Positions 3,234 to 45,742 of a stretch of DNA of 64,000 nt are shown here, one piece after another. Under the pieces are notes generated by a model that was not told the DNA's origin, did not search any database, and was given only the letters and a program-made list of their open reading frames with translations. Made by a program: the position numbers and the translations under genes. The stretch comes from Escherichia coli (GTDB lineage: Bacteria > Pseudomonadota > Gammaproteobacteria > Enterobacterales > Enterobacteriaceae), in NCBI RefSeq assembly GCF_003019035.1, contig NZ_CP027447.1; one strand, written 5' to 3'. The number at the start of each line of letters is the position of its first letter. Within the stretch, counting starts at the first letter, position 1.

Positions 3234-3460
3234 TGGCTGATGCAATGGATCTCGTACAGCAGCGCGTTGAAGAAGAACGCCAACGCCATATCCGTGCTGC
3301 CCGTGCCAAAACGCCGGGCGTGTCCCGCGTGCTTTGCATTGAGTGTGAAGCGCCAATTCCGCCAGCACGCCGCCGTGCCATTCCGGGTGTGCAGCTTTGC
3401 ATTACCTGTCAGGAAATCGCAGAGCTGAAAGGCAAACATTACAACGGAGGTGCTGTATGA
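3233..3460 (+). CDS. TraR/DksA-type C4 zinc-finger protein
   Basis: CxxC-N17-CxxC motif (CIECEAPIPPARRRAIPGVQLCITC); typical P2-family early gene. Confidence 0.7.
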   Translation: MADAMDLVQQRVEEERQRHIRAARAKTPGVSRVLCIECEAPIPPARRRAIPGVQLCITCQEIAELKGKHYNGGAV

Positions 3461-4314
3461 GCACCATCCTGAAATGGGCGGGAAATAAAACTGCCATAAT
3501 GTCCGAACTGAAAAAACATCTTCCTGCTGGCCCGCGACTGGTTGAACCTTTCGCGGGTTCCTGTGCTGTGATGATGGAGACGGATTATCCCAGCTATCTG
3601 GTTGCGGATATTAATCCTGATTTAATCAACCTCTATAAAAAGGTTGTCGCTGATTGTGAATCGTTTATATCTCGCGCCAGAGTTTTATTTGAGAACGCAA
3701 ACAGGGAGATGGATTATTACAACATAAGGCAGGAGTTTAATTACTCAACTGAAATTACTGATTTCATGAAAGCGGTATATTTCCTGTATCTCAATCGTCA
3801 CGGTTACCGTGGTTTATGTCGCTATAACAAGAGCGGGCATTTCAACATTCCCTACGGTAATTATAAAAATCCGTATTTCCCTGAAAAAGAAATTCGCGCA
3901 TTTGCAGAGAAAGCCCAGCGGGCAACGTTTATCTGCGCCAGCTTTGATGAAACGCTGGCGATGCTGCAGGTGGGGGATGTGGTGTATTGCGATCCGCCTT
4001 ATGACGGCACGTTTTCCGGTTATCACACTGACGGCTTCACTGAAGATGACCAGTATCATCTGGCATCCGTTCTTGAGCATCGGTCATCAGAAGGACATCC
4101 GGTCATTGTTTCTAACAGTGACACATCCCTGATCCGTTCGCTGTATCGCAATTTTACTCACCACTACATCAAGGCAAAACGCAGCATCGGCGTAGCAGCT
4201 GGTGAGAGTAAATCTGCAACAGAAATCATCGCTGTTTCTGGGGCACGCTGCTGGGTGGGATTTGATCCTTCGCGTGGCGTGGATAGTTCTGCTGTGTACG
4301 AGGTGCGTGTATGA
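3457..4314 (+). CDS. dam: DNA adenine methyltransferase (Dam family)
   Basis: DPPY catalytic motif (VYCDPPYDG) and AdoMet-binding-like EPFAGSCAV; GGAGG RBS; ATGA overlap with upstream gene. The ORF-track start 3397 was rejected as an N-terminal over-extension. Confidence 0.85.
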
Positions 4315-6725
4315 GTCATGACGATATGAGCAACTCTAGCGGCTTTAACGAGGCCGCTGCATCATTTTCATGGAACGGCCCGAAAAAGGCCATTAACCCT
4401 TATCTGGACCCGGCGGAAGTTGCGCCGGAGTCTGCACTTTCAAACCTGATCACTCTGTATGCTGCCGATAACGAGCAGGAACAACTGCGCCGCGAGGCAC
4501 TGAGTGAGCAGGTCTGGGAGCGTTATTTCTTTAATGAATCCCGTGATCCTGTCCAGCGCGAAATGGAGCAGGATAAGCTCATTAGCCGGGCAAAGCTGGC
4601 GCATGAGCAGCAGCGTTTTAATCCAGACATGGTCATTCTGGCTGACGTCAACGCCCAGCCTTCCCATATCAGCAAGCCGCTGATGCAACGTATTGAATAC
4701 TTCAGCAGCCTGGGCAGGCCAAAGGCTTATTCCCGCTATTTGCGTGAGACGATTAAGCCATGTCTGGAACGACTGGAGCATGTACGCGACAGTCAGCTAT
4801 CCACTTCTTTTCGCTTTATGGCAAGCCATGAAGGGCTGGACGGCCTGCTGATCCTGCCTGAAATGAGTCAGGATCAGGTGAAACGCCTGTCTACCCTTGT
4901 CGCTGCGCATATGAGCATGTGTCTTGATGCCGCTTGTGGTGATTTGTACGCCACCGATGATGTTAAGCCAGAAGAAATCCGCAAGACATGGGAAAAGGTG
5001 GCAGCGGAAACCCTACGTTTGGATGTCATCCCGCCTGCGTTTGAGCAACTCCGTCGGAAAAGAAACCGCCGTAAACCAGTGCCCTATGAACTCATTCCGG
5101 GCTCGCTGGCGCGTATGCTGTGCGCCGACTGGTGGTATCGGAAATTGTGGAAGATGCGTTGCGAATGGCGGGAAGAGCAGTTGCGTGCTGTCTGCCTGGT
5201 CAGCAAAAAAGCATCTCCCTATGTCAGCTATGAAGCTGTGATGCATAAACGTGAGCAGCGCCGTAAGTCGCTGGAGTTTTTCCGTTCTCATGAACTGGTG
5301 AACGAAGACGGAGACGCGCTGGATATGGAAGATGTGGTAAACGCCAGCTGCAGCAACCCGGCGCATCGCCGCAATGAGATGATGGCCTGTGTTAAAGGTC
5401 TGGAGCTTATCGCGGAAATGCGCGGTGACTGCGCCGTTTTCTACACCATTACCTGTCCGTCACGTTTCCATTCCACGCTCAATAACGGCAGACCCAACCC
5501 GACCTGGAAAAACGCGACGGTAAGACAAAGCAGCGATTATCTGGTCGGTATGTTTGCTGCATTTCGTAAGGCGATGCACAAAGCCGGGTTGCGCTGGTAT
5601 GGCGTGCGGGTGGCTGAGCCGCATCACGACGGCACAGTTCACTGGCACCTGTTGTGTTTCATGCGCAAAAAAGACCGCCGCGCCATTACTGCATTGTTGC
5701 GTAAGTTTGCTATCCGTGAAGACCGCGAGGAGCTGGGCAATAACACGGGGCCGCGCTTTAAGTCTGAGTTGATTAACCCGCGCAAAGGTACGCCAACAAG
5801 CTACATCGCGAAATACATCAGTAAGAACATTGACGGGCGTGGTCTGGCTGGCGAGATCAGCAAGGAAACGGGGAAATCCCTGCGTGATAATGCTGAATAC
5901 GTTAATGCCTGGGCGTCTCTGCATCGTGTTCAGCAATTCCGCTTCTTTGGCATTCCGGGGCGTCAGGCTTACCGCGAACTGCGATTGCTGGCTGGTCAGG
6001 CGGCAAGGCAACAGGGGGACAAAAAAGCAGGTGCGCCGGTACTGGATAACCCGCGCCTTGATGCAATCCTGGCTGCTGCTGATGCTGGTTGTTTTGCCAC
6101 CTACATCATGAAGCAGGGCGGCGTACTGGTTCCCCGCAAATATCACCTGATCAGAACCGCTTATGAAATCAACGAAGAGCCGACCGCCTATGGCGATCAC
6201 GGCATTCGTATTTATGGCATCTGGTCACCCATTGCAGAGGGCAAGATCTGCACTCATGCAGTGAAGTGGAAAATGGTTCGTAAGGCCGTTGACGTTCAGG
6301 AGGCGGCAGCCGACCAGGGCGCTTGCGCCCCTTGGACTCGTGGCAATAACTGTCCCCTTGCTGAAAATTTGAACCAACAAGGGAAAGACAAATCAGCTGA
6401 TGGGGACTCCAGAACGGATATTACCCGTATGAATGACAAGGAGTTGCACGATTACCTGCACAGTATGAGCAAAAAAGAGCGCCGGGAACTGGCTGCAAGG
6501 TTACGCCAGGTGAAACCGAAACGGCGTAAAGACTACAAACAGCGAATTACAGACCATCAGCGACAGCAGCTCGTCTATGAACTGAAGTCCAGGGGATTTG
6601 ATGGCAGCGAGAAAGAAGTCGATTTGCTCCTTCGCGGCGGCAGTATTCCGTCAGGAGCAGGCCTGCGTATCTTCTATCGGAACCAACGTCTGAAGGAAGA
6701 TGATAAGTGGCGGAACCTGTATTAA
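4311..6725 (+). CDS. replication initiation endonuclease (P2 gpA / 186 A homolog, rolling-circle type)
   Basis: 804-aa protein with HUH-like motif (VHWHLLCF) and downstream tyrosine region (YIAKYISKN); position after dam as in P2-like phages. Confidence 0.85.
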
Positions 6726-6817
6726 TTACGCGGGTTAACAATTCGTGCTCTTAATAATACCAGGCATATCAGGCCGATGAACGTAAAAAAACGTTTTACA
6801 TCAGTAAGATTATTATA

Positions 6818-6837
6818 TACTGTAAATATAAACAGTG
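6818..6837. promoter_or_regulatory. LexA (SOS) box
   Basis: TACTGTAAATATAAACAGTG matches the LexA consensus TACTGTATATATATACAGTA at 17/20 with intact CTGT-N8-ACAG; ~40 bp upstream of the ORF at 6878. Confidence 0.6.
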
Positions 6838-6877
6838 GTTATGTATACAGTATTGTTTTGGTGTCATAGGAGGAAAG

Positions 6878-7066
6878 ATGCAGGACTATTTTTTGGAGTC
6901 TTTGAAGCTCCAGCGCATTGATTTTTTTCTTAAGCTTGTAGCGGCTAGTGAGTGTAGTGATGAAGAGAAGGGGCTGGCTCTGCAGTGGGTTTCTGAATTG
7001 ACTGATGAACTCATGGCAAAAATCAGAAGCCACGAATACAACCGCTCAATGGATGTCATCAGCTGA
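6878..7066 (+). CDS. small SOS-controlled protein (62 aa), possible Tum-like antirepressor N-terminal module
   Basis: Strong RBS AGGAGG before ATG; immediately downstream of the LexA box; followed after 10 bp by the DinI-like ORF. Confidence 0.4.
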   Translation: MQDYFLESLKLQRIDFFLKLVAASECSDEEKGLALQWVSELTDELMAKIRSHEYNRSMDVIS

Positions 7067-7076
7067 GGTGACTTTT

Positions 7077-7310
7077 ATGCGCATTGAAATAATGATCGAT
7101 AAAGAGCAGAAGATTAGCCAGTCTACCCTGGACGCCCTTGAATCCGAGCTTTACCGCAATCTGCGCCCCCTGTATCCCAAAACGGTAATTCGCATTCGCA
7201 AAGGTAGCTCTAACGGTGTGGAACTAACCGGACTGCAACTGGATGAAGAAAGAAAACAAGTGATGAATATTATGCAGAAGGTGTGGGAGGACGACAGCTG
7301 GCTGCATTAA
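7077..7310 (+). CDS. dinI: DinI-family protein (77 aa)
   Basis: MRIEIMIDKEQ...VWEDDSWLH resembles DinI (MRIEVTIAK...WESADDW) in length and at both ends; LexA box upstream. Confidence 0.75.
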   Translation: MRIEIMIDKEQKISQSTLDALESELYRNLRPLYPKTVIRIRKGSSNGVELTGLQLDEERKQVMNIMQKVWEDDSWLH

Positions 7311-7502
7311 GAAACGTTGCCCCCAGGAGGATTCATTCTGATGGGGGCTAGTTTGGGCAATGAGTGAAATAAGGCGTAAGGTGGGCGGTTATTTTGATAA
7401 GTGATCGTCCGCTTTGTGTCAGAAGCAGAAGTGGGAGTGTCTGAGACTCTCTAAAAGTTGATGATTCACTTACAAAACCATTTTCCTGATGGATGCTTAC
7501 AC

Positions 7503-7838
7503 TTACGAATGATCATTCTGTTTAGTCTTCATGAGAAAATCCCGAATCTTTGCCAAGTTTGAATTTTCGGGGATTGAATCCATGTACGGATCACGCTCAA
7601 ACACTAATTGCTCAGATTCAACGAAAGCCTGCCACTCTACTGGGTCTAGCTCAAATCCCATTGCTGTCATATCACTTTCATCTTCCCCCTCGATCCAGTG
7701 GACTAAATAAAACAATTCATCATCAGGAGAATCATCCTCACCATCAACAATATCAACATCGGTTACAGTGATACGTAGGGTGGGATCGATTTTTGAGACA
7801 TAAATTCCTAACTGTGGTATAGGGGGAATATTGTTCAT
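7503..7838 (-). CDS. strongly acidic hypothetical protein (111 aa)
   Basis: 26 Asp/Glu versus 7 Lys/Arg; strong RBS (AAGGAG) on the minus strand; own transcription unit, convergent with dinI and divergent from the KAP NTPase. Confidence 0.55.
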   Translation of the reverse strand: MNNIPPIPQLGIYVSKIDPTLRITVTDVDIVDGEDDSPDDELFYLVHWIEGEDESDMTAMGFELDPVEWQAFVESEQLVFERDPYMDSIPENSNLAKIRDFLMKTKQNDHS

Positions 7839-8217
7839 GGAAACTCCTTTTATTGGTGTTTGCTATTTGAATAAAAATACGCCAAACAGAGTGTTAACTG
7901 TGAATATGGAAAGAATCGTTGTAAGTACCCCGCTTAGGTGTCCCATTCTATTTTAGAGGTTCTCGTGCATATGGATTATGTTATCTGAAAGTTAACTTCC
8001 GCTTCCCGTTCACAGCGAACATTCATCTTTGTAAACCCGTATGATCCGTTTTTCAAGTGGCCATTCAGATACGGATTTTCACTTCCTTGACAGTGCATGA
8101 CTATGCTGCATGAAATCGCATGATCGATTGAGGATCGTCTTTGCTCAGATCCGCCAGAACTGGCGGGCTTTTGCTCATGTCATGCATGTGCATGAAAACC
8201 ACTGCATAAAGCGGGCA

Positions 8218-8236
8218 GGCGTGGCGGGGATACGAG
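8218..8236. other. candidate cos cohesive-end core (P2/186-like)
   Basis: GGCGTGGCGGGGATACGAG then GCGCGCGCT; resembles the P2/186 cohesive-end sequence as I recall it (GGCG[A/T]GGCGGGGAAAGCA..). Recalled from memory, not verified. Confidence 0.3.
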
Positions 8237-8303
8237 CGCGCGCTTATTACTTTGATAGTACTCGGGTTATAATATGGATGACTATCTATCTCGGAGAATG
8301 TGC

Positions 8304-9956
8304 ATGTCATTGGACTATATTAAAGAACAGTTGTCAGACTTTATTTCATCTGCAGAACCTGAGGTAATGGCTATTCAGGGTGAATGGGGGATTGGGAAAA
8401 CCTATACTTGGAATACTTTCTTAAAGGAAAATAAAAATAAGATTGCATTTAATAGATATAGTTACGTCTCTCTTTTTGGTGTTAATTCATTGGACGCATT
8501 AAAATATTCCATCTTTGAAAATACAATTACAAAAGATTTTATTGGAAATAAACCTAATTTAAAAACAGCAACACAAAATACAAAGGGACTTCTTGAATCC
8601 TGCACTAGAAAGACCGCTCGTTTGTTAAAAGAAACACCTGTTGTGAAAAATTTCGCTACGACACTTGAGTCAATGTCATTTATGTCAATTACTAATGTTA
8701 TTGTAGTCATAGATGACTTAGAAAGACGTGGTAAAAATTTAGAAGTGAAAGATGTCTTAGGGTTGGTTTCTTTATTGAAAGAACAAAAAAATTGTAAGGT
8801 GGTTCTTTTACTTAATAATGGGACAAGTGGTATGGATGATTACTCCACTTATAAAGAAAAGGTTATTGATAGAGAGATTACCTATAACCCTACGCCAGAA
8901 GAATGTGCAGCTATAGCATATAAAAATAATTCTGATGTTCATAAATTATTAAGCAAATACTCCATTTCTCTGGGTATTAAAAATATTCGGATACTGAAAA
9001 AAATAGAGCGGTTTTTGCTAGCCTTGTTACCTGCTATTAACGTTAATTTTGATAAAATTGCAAATGAAGTCGCACGCTCCTTAACTTTGTATTGTTGGAG
9101 TCATTACGCATTTACTCCAGATGGAGATGTACCATCATTGGAATATATTAGAAATATGAGAAATATCTATATGCGTGATGAAAAAGAGGATGGAAAAGGA
9201 AAAAAATGGCTTAATACTTTGCTTATATATGGTTATAAAAAAACAAACGAACTTGATGAAGTCCTTATAGACATGGTTAAGCATGGATATATTGATATGA
9301 ACAATTTTCAAAGGCAAGTAAGTCTAAGAAATGATGAACTTATCCGTGATAGTAAGCGAGGTTCACTGTTTGAAGCATGGAAGCTTTTCTATAATTCATT
9401 TGAAGATAACCGAAATCAGGTTGTTGATAATCTATATCAAGCGGTGGTTGGTGGGATAGAGTATGTAACTCCAAGTGACTTGGATAGTGTTGTCGGACTG
9501 TATAGAGATTTAGATGAAAATATTAAAGCAAGTGAATTAATAAGTAAATTTATTAATTACGGCAATGATGCTCTTAAGGAATATGTCCAATCTATTTACA
9601 TGAATGTTCATCCTATAAAAGATGCTGAGTTAAAGTCAAAAATCCAAGATTATTCTATTACTTTAAATCTGGATGGTTCTATAAAGGATGTTCTAATAAA
9701 ATTATCAAGTCAGAATGGTTGGTCTGATAGGCACGAGGAAATATTGGATGCTGCCTCAGAGGATGACTACTATGATTTATTTAAAAAAGTCATTCTTGAA
9801 GGTGGTGATTCAATAATAGCCACTGCTCTTAAGTTTGGTGGGTATAGCAATGGTTCAGATAGAATGAAACGCATCGGAGAAAAAGCGAGAAATGCTTTGA
9901 TAAGAATTGGAAATGAGTCGAAGATTAATAAAATACGTGTTAGACGGTATTTGTAA
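8304..9956 (+). CDS. KAP-family P-loop NTPase (standalone, ~550 aa)
   Basis: Walker A GEWGIGKT (KAP signature GxWGxGK[ST]) and Walker B VIVVIDDLERR; no obvious transmembrane insert; AT-rich; perfect TATAAT at 8268-8273 upstream. ATG 8304 chosen for RBS spacing; the track ORF begins at 8274. Confidence 0.8.
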   Translation: MSLDYIKEQLSDFISSAEPEVMAIQGEWGIGKTYTWNTFLKENKNKIAFNRYSYVSLFGVNSLDALKYSIFENTITKDFIGNKPNLKTATQNTKGLLESCTRKTARLLKETPVVKNFATTLESMSFMSITNVIVVIDDLERRGKNLEVKDVLGLVSLLKEQKNCKVVLLLNNGTSGMDDYSTYKEKVIDREITYNPTPEECAAIAYKNNSDVHKLLSKYSISLGIKNIRILKKIERFLLALLPAINVNFDKIANEVARSLTLYCWSHYAFTPDGDVPSLEYIRNMRNIYMRDEKEDGKGKKWLNTLLIYGYKKTNELDEVLIDMVKHGYIDMNNFQRQVSLRNDELIRDSKRGSLFEAWKLFYNSFEDNRNQVVDNLYQAVVGGIEYVTPSDLDSVVGLYRDLDENIKASELISKFINYGNDALKEYVQSIYMNVHPIKDAELKSKIQDYSITLNLDGSIKDVLIKLSSQNGWSDRHEEILDAASEDDYYDLFKKVILEGGDSIIATALKFGGYSNGSDRMKRIGEKARNALIRIGNESKINKIRVRRYL

Positions 9957-9994
9957 TTTGGGAGGGGGATTTTCATCCCCCCCACACATTTTAT

Positions 9995-11026
9995 CTAATT
10001 CAATGAATAATCTTTGAAGGCTATTATTTTTTTCTTTAGCCAAATATTAACTTCTACAAGTCTTTTTTGTAAAGGAATTAACTCATTTCGCACAAAAACG
10101 CAACCGGCTTTCTCTATATCCCCAAATCCCCCAACATTATTAGGCATTATCCCCATCATTTGTGGCGGTACACGGTGCGCAGCCATCATGTCATCGCGGC
10201 TGACATTTTTGATATTCAGAAACTCATCCTTCGCCGCGACTTCTGACAGAGGAATGATCTGAAGGCCGTCCTTTTTGCCGTTAGGCGAGTACATAAACAG
10301 GTTGCGGAAGTTGCCTGGACCTTTGGCGCTTTTCATCGCGTTGCGGAGATTGTTCACATCCTCCTGATTCTGCGCGGCGTCGGTCATGTACATGATGAAG
10401 CCTGCATGGCTGCCGTTGATGTAATACTTACGGCGGAACAGCGTGGCAGACTCGTTGAGCAGGGCGGATGGAATGGCAGAAAGATAGCCTGGCAGGCCGT
10501 AGATCTCCTGGTTGATGTCCGGTTCCATCAGATGAAAAATGCTGCCTTTCGTGAACTGATACGGCTGGGTTGTCATACCGTATTGCACAAACCAGTAGGT
10601 ATCCAGGTCTAACCCACGTCGGGTGTATTTTGCCAGCGCAGGCTCAAGGGCGATAACTTCACCGAATCGGTTCGTGCGTTTCTCCAGGTAGGCGTTACCA
10701 AATACCAGATAGTCCTGCACAAAACGCGAAAAAGCCTGTTGGCTGAGCAGCGGATGAGGGATATAGGTACTGGTCAGAATGTTGCACTTTACTGCAATCG
10801 GGGAACTGTGATGCACGGCAGCGCGGAAGGTGCGTGCCAGTCCGTCAAAACTTACGGGTGGCTCATACCAGCGATCCGTCTGTACGCATTCCACATAGTC
10901 CAGCAGTTCGCGGCGGTCCAGTACAGGAATGGGATCACCAAAGCTGAAAGCTTCGGCTGAAATTTGATTTTTATGCTGACTCTGTTTCGTCGTCGCAGCG
11001 CGGTTTTTCTTACTCTTTCCCATCAA
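9995..11026 (-). CDS. portal protein (P2 gpQ homolog)
   Basis: 343-aa ORF, leftward, followed by the terminase ATPase gene; P2 Q-P arrangement. Confidence 0.9.
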   Translation of the reverse strand: MMGKSKKNRAATTKQSQHKNQISAEAFSFGDPIPVLDRRELLDYVECVQTDRWYEPPVSFDGLARTFRAAVHHSSPIAVKCNILTSTYIPHPLLSQQAFSRFVQDYLVFGNAYLEKRTNRFGEVIALEPALAKYTRRGLDLDTYWFVQYGMTTQPYQFTKGSIFHLMEPDINQEIYGLPGYLSAIPSALLNESATLFRRKYYINGSHAGFIMYMTDAAQNQEDVNNLRNAMKSAKGPGNFRNLFMYSPNGKKDGLQIIPLSEVAAKDEFLNIKNVSRDDMMAAHRVPPQMMGIMPNNVGGFGDIEKAGCVFVRNELIPLQKRLVEVNIWLKKKIIAFKDYSLN

Positions 11027-12789
11027 AAAATCTCCACAATATTACTTGTATTGGCGGACTCGCCCTGCAGTGGTTCGTTAAACAGTGCGTGCATTGTTGC
11101 CCAGGCCAGATCGGCGTGGCTGGCTTCTTCGCTGCGGCTGGCTTCATAGGTTGGGCGGTTGCCGCTGGCGGTGGTGGCGCGACGGATTGCCATAAATGAT
11201 TGCGCAATGTCGGTGTGCCCGGCGTCAAACTCCAGACGGCGGTGGCTGATAATGTCGTAGGCCTTGAGTACCAGGGCGTTTTTAACGTTGGGGTTGTAAA
11301 CAAACTCCCGGACGGCAGGAAAGAACGCTTTCACGTTCTCATAAACCCCGTGACCTACACCTGTCGAGTCGATGCCGATATAGGTCACGTTGTACTGTTC
11401 GGTCAATTTTTTGATGGCATCCGCCTGGGCGCGGAAGTCCATCCCGCGCCACTGGTGACGCTCAAGAATGCGGAACTTACCGCCCGGCACGGCTGGCGGA
11501 GCCACCACCACGCATCCGGCACTGTCGCCGTTCTGCGTACCTTTCGCCGGGTCATAACCGATCCATACTTCGCGCCAGCCAAACGGGCGCAGGGCCAGTG
11601 CATGAAAGTCGGTCCAGACTTCCCAGCTGTCCACCATGCACGCCTGCAGTTCGCTGAGCGGAAACACGGACGCGAGATCGTCCACGAACTCGCACATCAG
11701 CAGGTTCTGGTATTCATCCGGGCTGTACTCCATGCGCAACTGGTCAAGGTCGAACAGGTTACAGCCGCCGCGCACCGCGTCTTCCACGGTGACTATCTGG
11801 CGGTATTGCCCGTCTGCGCACAGCAGGCCGGGGGCCAGATTGCTGTGGGACAGGTCGATGTCCACCTTGTCGGCTTTGTTGCGTCCACGGTTGAACAGCG
11901 CACCGGACCAGAACGGATAAGCACTGTGGGTCAGGCTGGATGGCGTGGAAAAATAGGTTTGTCGCCATTTCTTGTGAATAGCCATCCCGGAAGCCACTTT
12001 GCGCAGCTCCTGGAATTTCGGTATCCAGAAATATTCATCCAGATACAGGTTGCCGTGATAACTCTGGGCCGTGCGGGCATTGGTGCCGAGGAAGTAAAGC
12101 GTGGCTCCGTTAGGAAGCACCATCGGATCGCCTTTCAGCTCCACCTCCACTTCTTTGGCGAAGTCGATGATGTACTGTTTAAAGACGTGGGCCTGTGCCT
12201 TACTGGCGGAAAGGAAAATCTGGTTACGTCCGGTAAGCAGGGCGTCAATCAGGGCTTCACGGGCAAAGTAAAAGGTCGCGCCGATCTGGCGAGACTTCAG
12301 CAGGTTGCGGATGCGGTTGGTTTTTCCGGCTTCCCACCAGTGGCGCTGGTAGTTGAACATGGAGGAATGGAAGATTTCTTCCAGCTTCTCAATCTGCTCA
12401 TCGGTGAAAACATTCTTTTCCGGCTGACGGCGTGGGCCTTTATTGCGGTTGGCGACGTTAGGGTTTAAGTCGGCTTCGTTGCCGCCATTGTTAAACTTGC
12501 CGATCCGCGCGTGGCGCTCAGACTGGCGCGCCAGCAGGTCAATCTCTTTGAAATCTTTCCCTTCTTTGTGCTCCTTCATAATGAGCTGGCAGTAGCGTGC
12601 GGCGGTGGTGAGCTGCATCTGATCCAGCGGCCCATAGTCACCCCACTTGTCGCGTTTTTTCCAGCTGTGAACGGTTGCAACTTTCTCGCCCAGCATTTCA
12701 GCAATGCGGGCTACGCGGTATCCCTGAAAGTACAGCAACATGGCCTGCCGACGGGGATCGAGATCTGCGGGTGTCAGTGTGGTGTTCAT
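11023..12789 (-). CDS. terminase large (ATPase) subunit (P2 gpP homolog)
   Basis: 588-aa ORF divergent from the O-N-M-L operon; size and position match P2 gpP. Confidence 0.9.
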   Translation of the reverse strand: MNTTLTPADLDPRRQAMLLYFQGYRVARIAEMLGEKVATVHSWKKRDKWGDYGPLDQMQLTTAARYCQLIMKEHKEGKDFKEIDLLARQSERHARIGKFNNGGNEADLNPNVANRNKGPRRQPEKNVFTDEQIEKLEEIFHSSMFNYQRHWWEAGKTNRIRNLLKSRQIGATFYFAREALIDALLTGRNQIFLSASKAQAHVFKQYIIDFAKEVEVELKGDPMVLPNGATLYFLGTNARTAQSYHGNLYLDEYFWIPKFQELRKVASGMAIHKKWRQTYFSTPSSLTHSAYPFWSGALFNRGRNKADKVDIDLSHSNLAPGLLCADGQYRQIVTVEDAVRGGCNLFDLDQLRMEYSPDEYQNLLMCEFVDDLASVFPLSELQACMVDSWEVWTDFHALALRPFGWREVWIGYDPAKGTQNGDSAGCVVVAPPAVPGGKFRILERHQWRGMDFRAQADAIKKLTEQYNVTYIGIDSTGVGHGVYENVKAFFPAVREFVYNPNVKNALVLKAYDIISHRRLEFDAGHTDIAQSFMAIRRATTASGNRPTYEASRSEEASHADLAWATMHALFNEPLQGESANTSNIVEIF

Positions 12790-14843: not shown

Positions 14844-15494
14844 ATGAGCCTGAGTCCCGCACGGCAGCATCGCCTGCGCGTTCAGGCTGAACAGGCCGCC
14901 CGTGAGGGCGGCAGCGTTCGCCACGCGTCGGGCTATGACCTGATGCTGCTGCAACTGGCGGAAGATCGCCGCCGTCTCAAGGGCGTTCAGTCCACGGTCA
15001 AAAAAGCGGAAATCAAGGTGGAGCTGCTGCCGAAATACGCCGCCTGGGCAGAGGGTGTTCTGGCTGCCGGAGGCGCTCAACAGGATGACGTGCTGATGTA
15101 CGTGATGCTGTGGCGCATTGATGCCGGAGATTATGCCGGGGCGCTGGAGATCGGGCGTCATGCCCTGCGTCATGGCTGGGTGATGCCGCTGGGTAACCGC
15201 AATGTGCAAACCGTGCTGGCAGAGGAAATGGCAGACGCGGCACAGAGCGCAATGCTTGCCACTACCGGCTTTGATGTCGATCTGTTGCTGCAGACGCTGG
15301 AGCTGACAGACGGTCTGGACATGCCGGACCAGTCACGGGCGCGTCTGCATAAAGCGATTGGCGCTGTCCTGAGTGAAAGTAATCCGGCTTCCGCCCTTAA
15401 TCATCTCAACCATGCGTTACAGCTCGATCCCCGCTGTGGCGTGAAAAAAGACAAACAGCAGCTGGAGCGCAGACTGCGCAATGACAGCCGCTGA
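14844..15494 (+). CDS. terminase small (endonuclease) subunit (P2 gpM homolog)
   Basis: 216-aa ORF after the capsid gene. Confidence 0.85.
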   Translation: MSLSPARQHRLRVQAEQAAREGGSVRHASGYDLMLLQLAEDRRRLKGVQSTVKKAEIKVELLPKYAAWAEGVLAAGGAQQDDVLMYVMLWRIDAGDYAGALEIGRHALRHGWVMPLGNRNVQTVLAEEMADAAQSAMLATTGFDVDLLLQTLELTDGLDMPDQSRARLHKAIGAVLSESNPASALNHLNHALQLDPRCGVKKDKQQLERRLRNDSR

Positions 15495-17530: not shown

Positions 17531-17924
17531 AGCGGTGCCTTATGTCCGTCATAACCCGGACAAACTGCACCTGTTTGTGGATAACGGTTCGCTGGTTGCC
17601 ACCGGGGCCAGCTCCATGTCATGGGAGTACCGTTACACCCTGAACGTGGTGATTGAGGATTTCAGCGGCGACCAGAATCTGTTGATGGCCCCGGTTTTGC
17701 TGTGGCTGCGGGATAACCAGCCCGATGCCATCAATAACCCGGCGTTACGGGAAAAGCTATTCACCTTTGAGGTGGATATTTTGCGCAACGATGTCTGTGA
17801 TATCAGCCTGAACCTGCAACTGACGGAGCGTGTGCTGGTCAGCACTGACGGCAGCGTGTCGAACGTTGAAGCGGTAGCGGAACCTGATGAACCTGAAGAA
17901 ATGTGGACGGTGAAACGTGGCTGA
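17472..17924 (+). CDS. tail completion protein (P2 gpR homolog)
   Basis: 150-aa ORF after the lysis genes; size and position match gpR. Confidence 0.75.
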   Translation: MRVRSETVNKPQSLRHALNKAVPYVRHNPDKLHLFVDNGSLVATGASSMSWEYRYTLNVVIEDFSGDQNLLMAPVLLWLRDNQPDAINNPALREKLFTFEVDILRNDVCDISLNLQLTERVLVSTDGSVSNVEAVAEPDEPEEMWTVKRG

Positions 17925-18375
17925 ACTGCAGAAAGTTGACGACTGGCTGAGTGCCTTGCTGGCGAATCTGGAGCCAGCCGCAAGAAGCCGCATGGTGCGT
18001 CAGCTGGCGCAGGAGCTGCGCCGGACACAGCAGCAGAATATCAGGATGCAACGCAACCCTGACGGCAGCAGTTATGAACCGCGCAAGGTCACAGCGCGCA
18101 GTAAAAAAGGCCGCATCAAACGTCAGATGTTTGCAAAGCTGCGCACCACAAAATACCTGAAAACCGCCGCCAGCGCCGACTCTGCCAACGTACAGTTTGA
18201 AGGCAAGGTGCAGCGCATTGCCCGCGTTCACCATTACGGCCTACGTGATCGCGTCAGCCGCAAAGGACCTGAGATCCGTTACGCAGAGAGAAAATTGCTT
18301 GGATTAAATGGATGTGAAAAATTAATTCGAAAAATATTCATTATGAATTTATTTTCTGGGGATTGGCTGGCATAA
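17917..18375 (+). CDS. tail completion / virion morphogenesis protein (P2 gpS homolog)
   Basis: 152-aa ORF; last gene before the AT-rich cargo; stop codon lies inside a terminator hairpin. Confidence 0.75.
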   Translation: MAELQKVDDWLSALLANLEPAARSRMVRQLAQELRRTQQQNIRMQRNPDGSSYEPRKVTARSKKGRIKRQMFAKLRTTKYLKTAASADSANVQFEGKVQRIARVHHYGLRDRVSRKGPEIRYAERKLLGLNGCEKLIRKIFIMNLFSGDWLA

Positions 18376-18397
18376 AAGCCAGCCTTTATTTTTTTAT
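18365..18397 (+). terminator. rho-independent terminator after S
   Basis: GGCTGGC-ATAAAA-GCCAGCC hairpin followed by TTTATTTTTTT. Confidence 0.55.
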
Positions 18398-19251
18398 GTG
18401 ATGGCCCCTATCTTTTGATTGTAATAACTATAATCAGCATGTTCTTCTGTATAAAAAATCTCAAATGCAGACAAGATGTTTGCGTAAAAACTATCCTTGG
18501 ATATAGAGGTTTTTTTATTGATGGATGCCAAAAAGTTTGTTATAAATCTTAATGATGCTGAGAAAAGAAAGTGCCCTTTCACCCAATGATTTATAGATGT
18601 ATTTTCTGGGAATTGAATGTTGTTTTTTTCTGCCAAACCATTAGTAGTAAACGATTCAGGTAGTCTATTGATATATTCATCTATTTTTTTCTTGCATATA
18701 TTGTATGAATTTCTTGATTGCATAAAACGATCACAGGAATCACCAATTACGGAGCATCCTAATTTATTTAAATGATTGTGAATATCTAGTATTATTAAGT
18801 TCTCAATGTTGCTATAGAAGTTAGAAAGCCAATTTCCTACATCTATTTCCTGCATTTTTTTTGTGCAAAAACGGCCTGTGTTTTTGAGTATGTGTGATAT
18901 GATTTTTTCATCAATGATTGTGTTTTCTATTGAATATCCCTTTGTGTAAATAATATTTGTATGCTTTACTATGTTGTCAGAAAAATGGTTTAGATCCGAA
19001 TCTCTGGCAACTATGGCGTTTATTTCTCCTGAGGTTATTTTTTCGATATATGGTTGTAAAGCTTCACATCCACCAACATCTTGAACTTCTACATTAAAAC
19101 GACCATTTTTTTTAAAAATTATTTCCCAAAAAGCAATGTCATCTTCACCTTCAACATAGACCATAATATCAGCATCATAAAATAAACTGATCACATTTTC
19201 CGCTTCATTAGACCAAGAAAAGTTTTCTGCATTAGAATCATTGATTAGCAT
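18394..19251 (-). CDS. Toprim/DUF4435-like protein (AriB-like), 285 aa
   Basis: Toprim-like acidic motifs VYVEGEDD (conserved Glu) and IVARDSD (DxD); overlaps the upstream ATPase gene by 14 bp; very AT-rich. Confidence 0.65.
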   Translation of the reverse strand: MLINDSNAENFSWSNEAENVISLFYDADIMVYVEGEDDIAFWEIIFKKNGRFNVEVQDVGGCEALQPYIEKITSGEINAIVARDSDLNHFSDNIVKHTNIIYTKGYSIENTIIDEKIISHILKNTGRFCTKKMQEIDVGNWLSNFYSNIENLIILDIHNHLNKLGCSVIGDSCDRFMQSRNSYNICKKKIDEYINRLPESFTTNGLAEKNNIQFPENTSINHWVKGHFLFSASLRFITNFLASINKKTSISKDSFYANILSAFEIFYTEEHADYSYYNQKIGAIT

Positions 19252-20494
19252 TGACTAATCTCTCCATATTGAAAATGGCGTTTTTATATTTAGATGCAAC
19301 TTCAGGAGAATGGGTTGCAGCAATAATTTGTGCATTAGGATTTAATTTTTTTATGGCAGGGATAATATTTCTTTGCCATTGAATATGTAAGGAAAGCTCA
19401 GGCTCATCAGTTAGGAAAATATATTGTTGCCCTCTTTGTAAGAGGGTCTCAATGAATAAAATTAGCAGTTGTTTTTCACCAGAAGATAAACTTTCTAAAA
19501 CTATTGGCCCATAGGTGTTATTTATGACTAACAATCCCGATTGAAAATGAAATTCTTTATCGGTGATAAAATTTCTTAGTATGCTTAAGAATTGTTCTAT
19601 TGGAGAAAATATTTTTGATGTTTTCTCTTTTGAAGTTAATGACATTTTGATTATTTTTTGTGTTTTTCTCAATGCTTCGATCGAACGAATATCAAAGCCT
19701 CTTTCACTTTTATTCTTTAATTCTGAAATGGTATTATTAATTGTTTCAACATGAAAGCTGATTTTTTTACGAATGTTTTGATCAATAGCATTTAACTGTG
19801 TGTATGCATTAAGGAGGTTTTGTTTTTCTTCCTCTTTGTTAAAGTTAATGTTGTAAGCAGGATTCTCCATATCTTCCTTGCTATAAAGTATTGATGCCAG
19901 AACCTCTTTTTGAAGTTCTAATGCGATATCTCTGGCTTTCTGGGATAGTTCAAGTTGATATTTTGTAAGTTCCTGTATTAATTCTGATAACTTATAGTCA
20001 ACAGGGTTGATAAAACGAGAGCCATATTTATCTTTAACTTCAAAATCATCACTATTTCTTAATCTGTAAACAGATAAAGAAGAAAGCGAGACTAGTTTTG
20101 CTAGTTCTGTTCTTAGTTCTTCTGTTTCATCATGCACTCTACGTCTATAACTAAGAGATATTCTTCTATCATCAGTGTTAAATAAACGAATTGTGTGTTT
20201 TTTAGATGAAAGCTGATATTCTATTTTGGAAAATGGAGATGTATCGCTTTCAAGTTTTTTGACTTTGATTGTTTTTGTCTTTTTTTTATCTTTAAGTTTT
20301 ATTTCGGCACTATTGAAATCAGCATTGTTAATACTGTCCAAATCAAGGGATAATATTGAGTGCAGAAGGTTCATAAAGGTTGTTTTACCCGTGCCATTTC
20401 GGCCTATAATAATGTTTACATCATCATTAAATGAGCAGGAACAGTTTAATCGCTGCCAAAAGCCATTAATTGTGACGCTTTGAATTTTATACAT
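19238..20494 (-). CDS. ABC/SMC-like ATPase (AAA_15/AAA_21-type, AriA-like), 418 aa
   Basis: Walker A GRNGTGKTT, ABC-signature-like LSSGEKQ, Walker B YIFLTDEPELSLH, H-loop IIAATHSPEV, with a charged coiled-coil-like insert between them. Confidence 0.75.
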   Translation of the reverse strand: MYKIQSVTINGFWQRLNCSCSFNDDVNIIIGRNGTGKTTFMNLLHSILSLDLDSINNADFNSAEIKLKDKKKTKTIKVKKLESDTSPFSKIEYQLSSKKHTIRLFNTDDRRISLSYRRRVHDETEELRTELAKLVSLSSLSVYRLRNSDDFEVKDKYGSRFINPVDYKLSELIQELTKYQLELSQKARDIALELQKEVLASILYSKEDMENPAYNINFNKEEEKQNLLNAYTQLNAIDQNIRKKISFHVETINNTISELKNKSERGFDIRSIEALRKTQKIIKMSLTSKEKTSKIFSPIEQFLSILRNFITDKEFHFQSGLLVINNTYGPIVLESLSSGEKQLLILFIETLLQRGQQYIFLTDEPELSLHIQWQRNIIPAIKKLNPNAQIIAATHSPEVASKYKNAIFNMERLVNANQ

Positions 20495-20541
20495 CTATGT
20501 ATCCTTTATTATTAGTTGAACTACTTAAATTTATAATCATT

Positions 20542-20559
20542 TGTGTCATTCTCAGTACA
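20542..20559. promoter_or_regulatory. candidate late-promoter activator site upstream of V (TGTGT-N9-TACA)
   Basis: TGTGTCATTCTCAGTACA; same pattern as the sites upstream of O and FI. Confidence 0.4.
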
Positions 20560-20606
20560 ATTATGCCGTTTGGAAGATATTATTTCAAATGTTTAATATA
20601 TACGGT

Positions 20607-21185
20607 ATGAACGCACAATTAACCGAAATCATGCGCCTTATCACCAATCTGATCCGCACTGGGGTAGTCACCGAAGTGGACCGGGAGAATTGGCTTTGCC
20701 GGGTGAAAACGGGCGACCTTGAAACTAACTGGATCAGTTGGCTGACGCTGCGTGCCGGGAATGCCCGCACATGGTGGCGACCATCGGAAGGTGAGCAGGT
20801 GGTGCTGCTGAGTCTTGGCGGCAATCTGGAGACTGCCTTTGCGCTGCCCGCTGTCTATTCGAATCAGTTCGCACCACCGTCGACGTCGGCGGACGCCTGC
20901 GTGACAGAACATCCTGACGGTGGCTGGTTTGAATACGAACCCGCCACCGGGCGCTGGTATGTCAAGGGCATCAAATCAATGGTCATTGAGGCCGCTGACA
21001 ACATCACCATGAAAACCAGTGAGTTTGTACTGGAGGCTGACCGCACGCGCATTAACAGCGAAGTGGTGATCAATGGTGGCGTTACCCAGGGCGGCGGAGC
21101 GATGAGTTCTAACGGGATCGTGGTTGATGTGCATCAGCATACTGGCGTCCTGAAAGGCGGCGATACAACCGGAGGCCCGGTATGA
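20607..21185 (+). CDS. baseplate spike/assembly protein (P2 gpV homolog)
   Basis: 192-aa ORF from ATG 20607 (MNAQLTEIMRL...); first gene of the V-W-J-I-H-G operon. Confidence 0.85.
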   Translation: MNAQLTEIMRLITNLIRTGVVTEVDRENWLCRVKTGDLETNWISWLTLRAGNARTWWRPSEGEQVVLLSLGGNLETAFALPAVYSNQFAPPSTSADACVTEHPDGGWFEYEPATGRWYVKGIKSMVIEAADNITMKTSEFVLEADRTRINSEVVINGGVTQGGGAMSSNGIVVDVHQHTGVLKGGDTTGGPV

Positions 21186-25016: not shown

Positions 25017-26054
25017 TTATATTTGCCTACCTCCTAATAAAATGTGTGAGGTGTATTTGTTGGTTTTCAATAACCTTGCTACAATTATACAGGTGGTTAC
25101 AATAAGGAAAACAAATGAAGGGGTTATGATGAGGTTATATATGAGTGGATTTTCGCATAGGTTATTAATGTTCACGTATGCCTCTATTCTGTGAAAAATA
25201 AACGACGAGATTATATAGATGGGAAAGGTGTAAGTACCGACAAAGGATGTGGCTCGTATAAATAAATTATTTTTCGTTGATAAAAATGTATAAGCATATA
25301 TAAGCGATATGCTTCCGGCGAAGCCAATGAAGTAGCGAAATATAATAATGAATGATTGATGCCAGAAATCAACATTCTCATATGTCATTTTAGATATGTA
25401 AATATAATACTCTCTATTCCATAGGAGAAGCATACCAATCCATGTTAATACGGCTAACACACCAATTTTGTGCCTATTTCTAGAGGCAAAATCTAAAATG
25501 CGATGGGCGGATATACCAGCGATAAAATAAGGGGCCATAAATTTAATTTTGTCCATATTCCAATCATCTCCATATGCAAGGGATATACTAAATATCAGTA
25601 AATAAAGCACCACAGAATATTGTTTGCTTATTGAGTGACAAATAGTATAAACAATAGATACTGCAAAGAGTGCAGAAAGGAACCAGAAGGCGTAGATGGC
25701 TCCATATCTAATATTTATTAAATTTATATCTCTTCCCACAAAAATGGATTCAGCAATGAACCATGCAATGGATGGGATTATTAACTGCATGAATTTTCTT
25801 TTGATAATTGATGATGGTTTTCTCTTGAGAGAAAAATAGAAAAGATAGCCGCTAAGCAGCATAAAAAATGGCATGTGGAAGCTGTAAATGGTAATAAATA
25901 ATGGGTTGTCAAAAAAATTGAAACTATCTTTTTTTACAAACTGAATTGAATGGCCCCACACGACAAAAATTATAGCTAATCCTTTCATTGAGTCTATAAT
26001 GGAATTTCGAGTGCTGGGTGTCTCTGTTATAATAAGATGTGGTTCGTTTTTCAT
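25017..26054 (-). CDS. acyltransferase family 3 integral membrane protein (O-antigen/LPS O-acetyltransferase-like)
   Basis: 345 aa, highly hydrophobic multi-TM; N-terminal region GLAIIFVVWGHSIQF typical of acyltransferase-3; very AT-rich; opposite strand to tail genes. Confidence 0.75.
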   Translation of the reverse strand: MKNEPHLIITETPSTRNSIIDSMKGLAIIFVVWGHSIQFVKKDSFNFFDNPLFITIYSFHMPFFMLLSGYLFYFSLKRKPSSIIKRKFMQLIIPSIAWFIAESIFVGRDINLINIRYGAIYAFWFLSALFAVSIVYTICHSISKQYSVVLYLLIFSISLAYGDDWNMDKIKFMAPYFIAGISAHRILDFASRNRHKIGVLAVLTWIGMLLLWNREYYIYISKMTYENVDFWHQSFIIIFRYFIGFAGSISLIYAYTFLSTKNNLFIRATSFVGTYTFPIYIISSFIFHRIEAYVNINNLCENPLIYNLIITPSFVFLIVTTCIIVARLLKTNKYTSHILLGGRQI

Positions 26055-26848: not shown

Positions 26849-28021
26849 ATGGCTCAGGATTACCACCACGGGGTGCGCGTAGTTGAAGTCAACGAAGGCA
26901 CCCGATCCATTACCACGGTGAGCACCGCCATCGTGGGTATGGTCTGCACGGGCGATGATGCCGATGCAAAAATGTTTCCTCTTAATAAACCCGTGCTGAT
27001 CACTGATGTGCTGACTGCCAGCGGTAAAGCGGGTGAGTCCGGTACGCTGGCCCGTTCGCTGGATGCCATCGCTGACCAGGCAAAACCCGTGACCGTTGTT
27101 GTGCGTGTGCCGCAGGGTGAAACGGAAGAAGAAACCACGACCAATATCATCGGAGCAGTGACCGCTGAAGGTAAAAAAACAGGCATGAAAGCCCTGTTAT
27201 CTGCCCAGTCACAGCTCGGCGTTAAACCGCGCATTCTCGGCGTGCCAGGTCACGACACGAAGGCGGTAGCTACTGAGTTGCTGAGCGTGGCGCAAAGCCT
27301 GCGTGGGTTTGCTTACCTGTCAGCGTATGGTTGCAAGACGGTGCAGGAAGCAATCACTTACCGTGAAAACTTCAGTCAGCGTGAAGGAATGCTGATCTGG
27401 CCCGACTTTACTGGCTGGGACACGGTGCTGAATGCCGAAGCAACGGCTTATGCCACCGCCCGTGCGCTTGGTCTGCGCGCTAAAATTGACGAGCAGACCG
27501 GATGGCACAAAAGCCTGTCCAACGTGGGCGTGAACGGTGTCACCGGAATTTCTGCTGATGTGTTCTGGGATCTGCAGGACCCGGCAACCGATGCAGGTCT
27601 GCTGAACCAGAACGACGTCACCACGCTTGTGCGTAAAGACGGTTTCCGCTTCTGGGGTTCCCGCAGCCTGAGTGATGACCCGCTCTTTGCCTTCGAAAAC
27701 TACACCCGCACGGCGCAGGTGTTGATGGACACGATGGCAGAAGCACACATGTGGGCGGTGGATAAACCGCTTAACCCGTCGCTGGCCCGCGACATTATCG
27801 AAGGTATCCGCGCCAAAATGCGCAGCCTGGTCAGTCAGGGCTATCTCATTGGTGGTGATTGCTGGCTGGATGAGTCGGTGAACGACAAAGACACGCTGAA
27901 AACCGGAAAACTCACCATCGACTATGACTACACGCCAGTGCCGCCACTTGAAAATCTGATGCTGCGCCAGCGCATCACCGATCAGTACCTGGTGAATTTC
28001 GCCAGCCAGGTCAGCGCGTAA
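26849..28021 (+). CDS. tail sheath protein (P2 gpFI homolog)
   Basis: 390-aa ORF followed by the tail tube gene. Confidence 0.9.
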
Positions 28022-44614: not shown

Positions 44615-45742
44615 ATGCAGTGCGCACTTTACGACGCGGGTCGCTGTCGTTCCTGTCAGTGGATAACGCAGCCGATTCCAGAGCAACTCTCCGCTAAAAC
44701 CGCCGATCTTAAAAATCTGCTCGCCGATTTTCCGGTTGAGGAATGGTGTGCGCCGGTGTCAGGCCCGGAACAAGGGTTTCGTAATAAAGCCAAAATGGTG
44801 GTGAGTGGTAGCGTTGAAAAACCACTGCTCGGTATGCTGCATCGAGATGGTACACCGGAAGACCTTTGTGACTGCCCGCTTTATCCAGCCTCATTTGCGC
44901 CCGTTTTTGCGGCGCTAAAACCCTTCATCGCCCGTGCGGGTTTAACACCTTACAACGTGGCGCGTAAACGTGGTGAACTGAAATACATTCTGCTGACTGA
45001 AAGCCAGAGCGATGGCGGCATGATGCTGCGCTTTGTACTGCGTTCTGATACCAAACTGGCGCAACTGCGTAAGGCGCTGCCGTGGTTACAGGAACAATTA
45101 CCGCAGCTGAAAGTTATTACCGTCAATATTCAGCCGGTACATATGGCGATTATGGAAGGGGAGACGGAGATCTACCTGACCGAACAACAGGCGCTGGCGG
45201 AGCGTTTTAACGATGTGCCGCTGTGGATCCGTCCGCAAAGTTTCTTCCAGACCAATCCGGCGGTCGCCAGCCAGCTTTACGCTACCGCGCGCGACTGGGT
45301 GCGGCAACTACCGGTAAACCATATGTGGGATCTCTTCTGCGGCGTGGGGGGCTTTGGTTTACACTGCGCGACGCCTGACATTCAGTTAACCGGGATCGAA
45401 ATTGCACCAGAGGCCATTGCCTGTGCGAAGCAGTCAGCCGCTGAACTGGGCTTAACGCGTTTGCAATTTCAGGCGCTGGACTCTACGCAGTTTGCCACCG
45501 CCCAGGGGGAAGTGCCGGAGCTGGTGCTGGTTAACCCGCCGCGCCGCGGCATCGGTAAACCGCTGTGTGATTATCTCTCAACGATGGCACCGCGTTTTAT
45601 TATCTACTCCAGCTGTAACGCCCAAACTATGGCGAAAGATATCCGCGAACTGCCTGGTTATCGCATCGAACGGGTACAGCTTTTTGATATGTTCCCGCAC
45701 ACCGCGCACTATGAAGTGCTGACGCTGCTGGTGAAGCAATAA
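44615..45742 (+). CDS. rlmC: 23S rRNA (uracil747-C5)-methyltransferase
   Basis: 375 aa; N-terminal Cys cluster ([16 protein letters not shown]) and AdoMet methyltransferase motifs; K-12 synteny. Confidence 0.9.

Follow-up and report, generated by a model that had tools for sequence, protein, structure and literature searches.

A probable cos site of a Fels-2-type prophage in Escherichia coli, and the cargo slot between cos and the portal gene

The stretch of Escherichia coli DNA analysed here (the window, 64,000 nt of contig NZ_CP027447.1) carries a prophage of the P2 family in which a gene for a KAP-family P-loop NTPase is located next to the portal gene Q. The locus raises the question of where the cohesive-end site (cos) of this phage lies: upstream of the KAP gene, as proposed in the original prediction, or beside Q. 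On the basis of comparative sequence analysis, the block at 8093–8244 very probably represents cos of a prophage that belongs to the Fels-2 type within the P2 family (Peduoviridae), the remaining doubt being whether the prophage at hand still packages DNA. Coordinates of the features are collected in Table 1.

Table 1. Features of the cos region and of the neighbouring prophage genes, in window coordinates; signed positions are counted from the 19-mer's first base.
Feature	Position	Strand	Description
Replication endonuclease gene (gpA-like), 804-aa ORF	4311–6725	+	96–99% identical in relatives; RefSeq homologues so annotated
gpA-to-cos segment	6726–8092		62-aa ORF, DinI-like gene, AT-rich extra ~700 bp
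62-aa ORF	6878–7066	+	
DinI-like gene	within 7005–7310	+	Pfam DinI, 1.9e-22
111-aa ORF	7503–7838	-	phrog_17127; RefSeq 'DUF8087'
Conserved cos block (probable), 152 bp	8093–8244	+	-125 to +26
Three GCATG repeats (8095, 8108, 8118)	8095–8122	+	Columns ~1.0 conserved; align with TGCAT repeats of P2, P4 and 186
Hairpin and T-run	8150–8177	+	7 pairs, 5 GC, then CTTTTGCT (terminator scan); fold -11.8 kcal/mol
Proximal core, right-end side	8184–8217	+	GCATG-T-GCATGAAAACC ... CATAAAGCGGGCA
19-nt cohesive-end sequence (putative nicking site)	8218–8236	+	GGCGTGGCGGGGATACGAG; homology to P2/186 cos
CGCGCGC	8237–8243	+	No other sequence is conserved on the Q side (left end) of the nick; next base T
Cargo cassette	8245–9994	+	TATAAT, Shine-Dalgarno, KAP CDS, hairpin; GC 32% over 8245–9956
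KAP-family P-loop NTPase CDS, 550 aa	8304–9956	+	Pfam, PADLOC, phrog_4740
KAP-Q gap, 38 bp	9957–9994		Hairpin about 9959–9986
Portal gene Q	9995–11026	-	Convergent with KAP; RefSeq homologue 'phage portal protein'
Terminase large subunit gene (P2 gpP-like), 588-aa ORF	11023–12789	-	Immediately upstream of Q; same arrangement in P2 and Fels-2
Terminase small subunit gene (gpM-like)	14844–15494	+	phrog_74, 1e-88

The cohesive-end sequence and its surroundings

The Q protein of the window is 88% identical to Fels-2 Q, versus 62% to P2 Q and 61% to 186 W, and the prophage was therefore assigned to the Fels-2 type of the P2 family. Cutting at cos would be expected of the product of the gpP-like ORF (terminase ATPase subunit in the annotation of its E. 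coli B homologue), and cos recognition of the gpM-like product; the two terminase genes flank those for scaffold and capsid. At the other end of the region, the gpA-like replication gene forms the left anchor of the gpA-gpQ hotspot.

The 19-mer GGCGTGGCGGGGATACGAG occurs once in the 64-kb window, and was the sole zero-mismatch match when the entire window was searched with a degenerate P2/186-type pattern. Two other candidates returned by the 64-kb scan at up to three mismatches, at 45528 and 61879, had three mismatches each, a chance level also reached in shuffled sequence, and were discarded. The second motif that the original prediction had read as following the 19-mer, 'GCGCGCGCT', was located at 8236–8244, where it overlaps the last G of the 19-mer. 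A 19-nt sequence homologous to cos and a conserved core are hence found in a single copy between the A region and Q, in a genome with P2-type terminase genes. The proximal core on the right-end side, together with the 19-mer and GCGCGC, matches in position and length the 55-bp cos core, which is credited to Ziermann & Calendar 1990 in passages of PMC5694545 and PMC3931495.

The GC percentage was 51 over 8100–8270, 55 over the conserved block and 70 over 8205–8244, compared with 39 (7840–8092) and 32 (8245–9956) in the flanks and with 53 and 49 in the backbone genes gpA and Q, respectively. The GC-rich island initially noticed at 8100–8270 is thus GC-rich in relation to its AT-rich flanks, but only 51% GC in absolute terms, and it is better described as a piece of phage-backbone composition bracketed by AT-rich cargo. 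Within the 152-bp block, the pentamer GCATG was present five times against an expectation of 0.14 (P about 5e-7), and the three repeats at 8095–8122 are candidate recognition elements of the terminase small subunit.

Comparison with the cos regions of related phages

The database records of P2 and 186 start at their annotated cohesive ends, GGCGAGGCGGGGAAAGCAC (P2) and GGCGTGGCGGGGAAAGCAT (186). The window 19-mer is identical to 186 cos at 15 and to P2 cos at 14 of the 19 positions, and its first 13 nt are those of 186, including the T at position 5 that the original prediction had named as a 186-like trait. Positions 14, 16, 17 and 19 differ from P2 and 186 (ATACGAG in the window versus AAAGCAT or AAAGCAC). 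In both phages, as in the window, the 19-mer begins with GGCG(A/T)GGCGGGGA and is followed by GCGCGC, and the block is located between the replication region and Q.

A six-way alignment was made of the window, Fels-2, and P2, P4, 186 and SEN8, the latter four with their genome ends joined. The order of elements was common to all six: three TGCAT(G) repeats about 100–125 nt upstream of the nick, TGCAT(T/G)AAAACC at about -33 to -20, AAAG(C/T)GGGC directly before the nick, the 19-mer, and finally GCGCGC, which as (C/T)GCGCGC is kept in P2, P4, 186, Fels-2 and SEN8. The alignment against P2, 186 and related prophages that had been suggested as a check thus bears out the prediction, a block of about 150 bp matching their cos regions element by element. 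The window agrees with P2, P4 and 186 at 44–46 of 59 positions in the core (-33 to +26), whereas over the 100 nt past +26 the identity to these three was at the random level of 21–31%. The point of divergence after GCGCGC is common to the alignment, P4 included; homology of the window to all relatives stops after CGCGCGC, and conservation falls at +26/+27. The right boundary of the block, 7 nt past the 19-mer, is also the point where P4 departs from P2. According to passages of PMC9122126, P4 is packaged by the P2 terminase, and the DNA beyond +26 on the Q side is on these grounds probably dispensable for packaging.

The hairpin at 8150–8177 aligns with the 186 hairpin annotated as t95b, is common to 186, Fels-2 and SEN8, and is probably the terminator of a rightward operon of the DinI/tum type. 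It could accordingly be asked whether the island is mainly a terminator or regulatory region of such an SOS operon, to which the cos role would be incidental. This almost certainly does not hold, as the terminator accounts for 28 nt of the 152-bp conserved block while the remainder corresponds to cos elements found in P2, P4 and 186, and as P4 has the same cos elements yet is without a DinI/tum-type operon; in addition, the terminator and cos roles are compatible with each other.

Close counterparts to the cos block were found in Felsduovirus, where SEN8 and Fels-2 share with the window an identical 19-mer plus CGCGCGC and a cos block that is about 87–90% identical. The genome announcement of Salmonella phage SEN8 mentions 'a cos site (ggcgtggcggggatacgag)' (PMC5427200). 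The record of this phage, which was isolated as particles, opens with the 19-mer identical to that of the window under the label 'putative cos site', and over its final 125 nt it is 90% identical to window positions 8093–8217. In SEN8, as in the window, genes are inserted between cos and the portal gene (two genes, 2.2 kb, encoding a hypothetical protein and an HNH endonuclease), and in Fels-2 a 565-aa AbiU/AIPR gene stands between the identical 19-mer and Q. Unlike in the window, the cargo is thus not a KAP NTPase in these two phages, and their hosts are Salmonella instead of E. coli. A third variant of the 19-mer, GGCGTGGCGGGGCTACGAG, was encountered in a more distant relative (IMG/VR 2600255084_000002, ~4837).

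Conservation was quantified among IMG/VR loci with a portal protein at least 92% identical to that of the window, taking the best 80 of at least 600 matches per query. These loci are phylogenetically non-independent, and the fractions given here and below describe the samples and are not population estimates. Exactly one cos core was found between Q and gpA in 75 of the 80 loci, the other five having only 75–1686 bp of sequence past Q. When the 75 relatives and the window were anchored on the 19-mer, column identity was about 0.9–1.0 from -125 to +26 and ~0.3–0.5 on both flanks, so that between the gpA/DinI region and Q no DNA other than 8093–8244 is conserved. The 19-mer itself was identical in 70 of the 75 loci and differed in the remaining five at the last base only.

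Only some 170 bp separate the Q stop codon from cos in P2 and 186. By this precedent, the true cos might be sought in the KAP-Q gap or elsewhere beside Q, with the motif at 8218 as a coincidental look-alike. The gap does measure 38 bp as stated in the original prediction, from the KAP stop at 9956 to the Q stop codon at 9995–9997 on the - strand, and the view that it is unfit for cos was upheld: it is filled by a non-conserved G/C hairpin (-15.8 kcal/mol on the + strand, -18.3 kcal/mol on the - strand), which probably ends KAP transcription, and the pattern scan of the window found no cos-like motif in it. Almost every relative has a different sequence past the Q stop, with a hairpin of its own, and the Q-proximal gap therefore cannot carry a conserved packaging signal. 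The 8093–8244 block, on the other hand, is homologous to the cos regions of P2, 186 and P4 across ~150 bp, well beyond the 19-mer alone, and a cos beside Q is in our judgement extremely improbable. Together, the six-way alignment, the conservation among the 75 relatives, the SEN8 19-mer and the motif-less KAP-Q gap place the putative cos at 8218–8236, with the KAP gene between it and Q as the original prediction had it.

Whether this probable cos is still in use is a separate matter. It may be a genuine homologue that no longer serves packaging, in a defective prophage for which a 'leftmost packaged gene' would be moot: the attL/integrase end of the prophage is beyond the 64-kb window, the entire 6700–10100 arrangement has its best E. 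coli match in a decayed prophage with a frameshifted portal gene, and related prophages can have IS100 within the cos block. We regard loss of function as unlikely here. Other E. coli genomes carry copies of the cos block that are 100% identical, SEN8 shares an identical core, Q, P, the small terminase gene and the later structural ORFs are all full length, and no sign of decay was seen in the window. Of 5426 complete E. coli genomes, 1266 (about 23%) contained the cos block.

A 40-nt partial match in E. coli E300010, which had been suspected to be a satellite cos, proved to be a prophage cos block split by IS100. At this locus (~4115–6040), IS100 (istA/istB) is located within the cos block of the related prophage, beside a retron cassette; it leaves only -13 to +26, and the packaging signal of the E300010 prophage has therefore probably been lost.

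Cargo between cos and the portal gene

In P2 and 186, cos and Q are separated by a spacer of ~170 bp with the tQ/tW terminator, which is absent from the window, where 1.76 kb of cargo is present instead. The same contrast was seen among relatives. The cos-to-Q distance was 518–3497 bp in 75/75 window-type loci (median about 1800 bp; window, 1758 bp), whereas it was about 169 bp in 77 of 79 P2-type loci (exceptions 1439 and 2513 bp) and 165–179 bp in 62 of 79 186-type loci, with 380–2269 bp in the other 17. For the P2 and 186 types, the samples were the most similar 80 of at least 600 IMG/VR matches per query, and 79 loci were measured in each. Expressed as occupancy, the slot was filled in 75/75 Fels-2-type relatives, 2/79 P2-type and 17/79 186-type loci.

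Unrelated segments were found between the cos core and Q in closely related phages, as is characteristic of a hotspot. ORFs of at least 100 aa in the slot formed 63 clusters and were mostly read from cos toward Q. Matches among 55 cluster representatives included retron reverse transcriptases, AriA-like ATPases, GmrSD, AbiU/AIPR, DprA, Cap4 nuclease, SIR2, TIR and ThsB-type proteins, so that the slot cargo of the Fels-2-type relatives appears to be mostly of defence type, as judged from domain content.

In the window, the slot is occupied by the KAP cassette. The KAP start codon is most likely the ATG at 8304, as annotated in the RefSeq homologue. Membership in the KAP family was indicated by Pfam KAP_NTPase (PF07693; E-value 2.1e-9, 37.5 bits against a gathering cut-off of 20, residues 8–197) and by a Walker A motif, GEWGIGKT, encoded at 8378–8401. 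The protein also matched the PADLOC candidate PDC-S49 (4.3e-25) and phrog_4740 (8e-144), and a role in defence may be supposed. In aligned KAP loci, a -10-like TATAAT (8268–8273; TATAAT or TACAAT) and GGAG (8293–8296) are kept upstream of the gene, which suggests that the cassette brings a promoter of its own; no sigma-70 promoter was called by a consensus scan of the + strand from cos to the KAP ATG, where the -35 is weak.

All 20 IMG/VR loci with KAP homologues (41–100% identity) had them in the cos-Q slot, with cos 84–164 bp upstream of the ATG and Q convergent. These contexts were P2-type in 20/20, and no KAP cassette was found beside a P4-like satellite cos among them. The most divergent homologue, 41% identical, is in the slot of the distant relative 2600255084_000002, in which Q is 80% identical to Fels-2 Q and gpA 34% identical to that of the window; the arrangement of KAP in this slot is therefore either old or repeatedly transferred.

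The original prediction implied that a gene in this position was a novelty, which could not be sustained, since the E. coli B prophage carries a retron at this very position and the slot has already been called a hotspot in the literature. The E. coli B prophage backbone is 97.4% identical to the window from gpA to 8243, where the homology breaks off, and its cos block (sequence of a B derivative) is 99.3% identical. The 62-aa, DinI-like and DUF8087 genes are present there too, and the cos-Q slot likewise carries foreign DNA. In place of the single KAP gene of the window, this DNA consists of a 'retron St85 family' effector and a reverse transcriptase, followed by Q. We take this retron to be Ec86, the retron of E. 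coli B reportedly treated by Dodd and Egan in 1996. Homology to E. coli B resumes only ~110 nt inside the 3′-end of Q (9995–10107), at 92% as against 97%, and in an alignment of relatives anchored at the Q stop codon the last ~30 nt before the stop were poorly conserved. On these grounds, the swapped module seems to include C-terminal codons of the portal gene.

The gpA-gpQ interval of P2-like phages is described as a defence hotspot adjacent to cos in passages of Rousset et al. 2022 (PMC9122126), and the KAP cassette falls inside the interval so described. Extra genes between cosL and the gpQ homologue are also reported for phiCTX (ctx) and phiRSY1 (ORF1–4), with the 'left arm' called a hot spot (PMC5694545); these P2-like phages of Pseudomonas and Ralstonia, compared here by description, have distant hosts and differ from the window in their cos sequences and in carrying virulence or fitness cargo instead of defence-type ATPases. 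Descriptions thus already exist of the cos variant, of the slot and of retrons and defence genes making use of it. A modest addition is the contrast between lineages in slot occupancy, together with the observation that cos divides the gpA-gpQ hotspot in two. In the passages available from the papers the interval is taken as one hotspot 'adjacent to cos', whereas in the window the cos block separates two variable compartments.

In P4 satellites, the cargo (the gop/beta/cII region in P4) starts directly after GCGCGC on the left-end side of cos, as in the window; in P2 itself, old and tin are on the right-end side of cos, to the right of A (P2 record). We tentatively put forward, while thinking it rather doubtful, that the gpA-gpQ hotspot of Fels-2-type phages comprises two independent cargo compartments split by the 152-bp cos island, and that cos acts as a shared recombination anchor at which cassettes are swapped among helpers and between helper and satellite. 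The left compartment would begin exactly at +27, where the P4 satellites diverge from their helpers, and would be always filled in the present type and almost always empty in P2 proper. Terminase-cut ends might perhaps be recombinogenic and drive the exchange of defence cassettes at cos. The occupancy contrast refines the subdivision of the 'gpA-gpQ hotspot'; the cos assignment as such opens no new question.

Packaging model and neighbouring genes

By analogy with the biology of P2 and 186, the gpM-like small and gpP-like large terminase subunits would recognise the right-end side of the cos block, which carries GCATG at -123, -110, -100, -34 and -28, then AAAACC and AAAGCGGGCA. Staggered nicks, predicted by homology and with the geometry of the 186 record annotation, would fall 5′ of G8218 (top strand) and after 8236 (bottom strand), giving 19-nt 5′ cohesive ends. 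The linear virion genome would accordingly start with the 19-nt overhang and CGCGCGC, with the KAP cassette carrying its leftmost gene, and the cassette would be rejoined to the right end once the cohesive ends anneal after injection. Only ~7 bp (CGCGCGC) are conserved on the Q side, and cargo could therefore be inserted from +27 on without harm to packaging; +26, counted from the first base of the 19-mer, marks the boundary beyond which DNA is replaceable with the conserved packaging signal left untouched. For annotation, the probable cos indicates where the genome of a prophage type very common in E. coli begins and ends, and the KAP gene is to be read not as a host gene but as phage cargo located in a defence hotspot that is already recognised.

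On the right-end side of cos, the distance from the gpA stop to cos was 1492 bp in the window; 18 relatives had 788–790 bp there, and others reached as much as 3650 bp. The AT-rich ~700 bp around 7320–8092 looks like a second, small cargo, as the 18 relatives are without such a segment. PHROG matches in the gpA-to-cos segment were phrog_698 and phrog_17127, and the 111-aa ORF returned no match in Pfam or PADLOC.

Three further loci were observed in the prophage. A gene for a D12-class N6-adenine DNA methyltransferase (4e-77) is located at 3397–4314 (+), directly upstream of and overlapping gpA, and its homologue in related prophages is annotated as DNA adenine methylase in RefSeq. A PARIS-like defence pair at 18394–20494 (-), antisense in the late tail-gene region between the ORFs 17917–18375 and 20541–21185, consists of a 418-aa AAA_15/AAA_21 ATPase (PADLOC AriA, 2e-38) and a 285-aa DUF4435 protein (AriB, 2e-21), in what is presumably the position of P2 'orf30'. 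Finally, a 345-aa Acyl_transf_3 acyltransferase (5e-27) is encoded at 25017–26054 (-) between the tail-fibre region and ORF 26849–28021, the latter taken to be the sheath gene; the acyltransferase gene occupies what we assume to be the P2 Z/fun position and is probably an O-antigen-modifying lysogenic-conversion gene.
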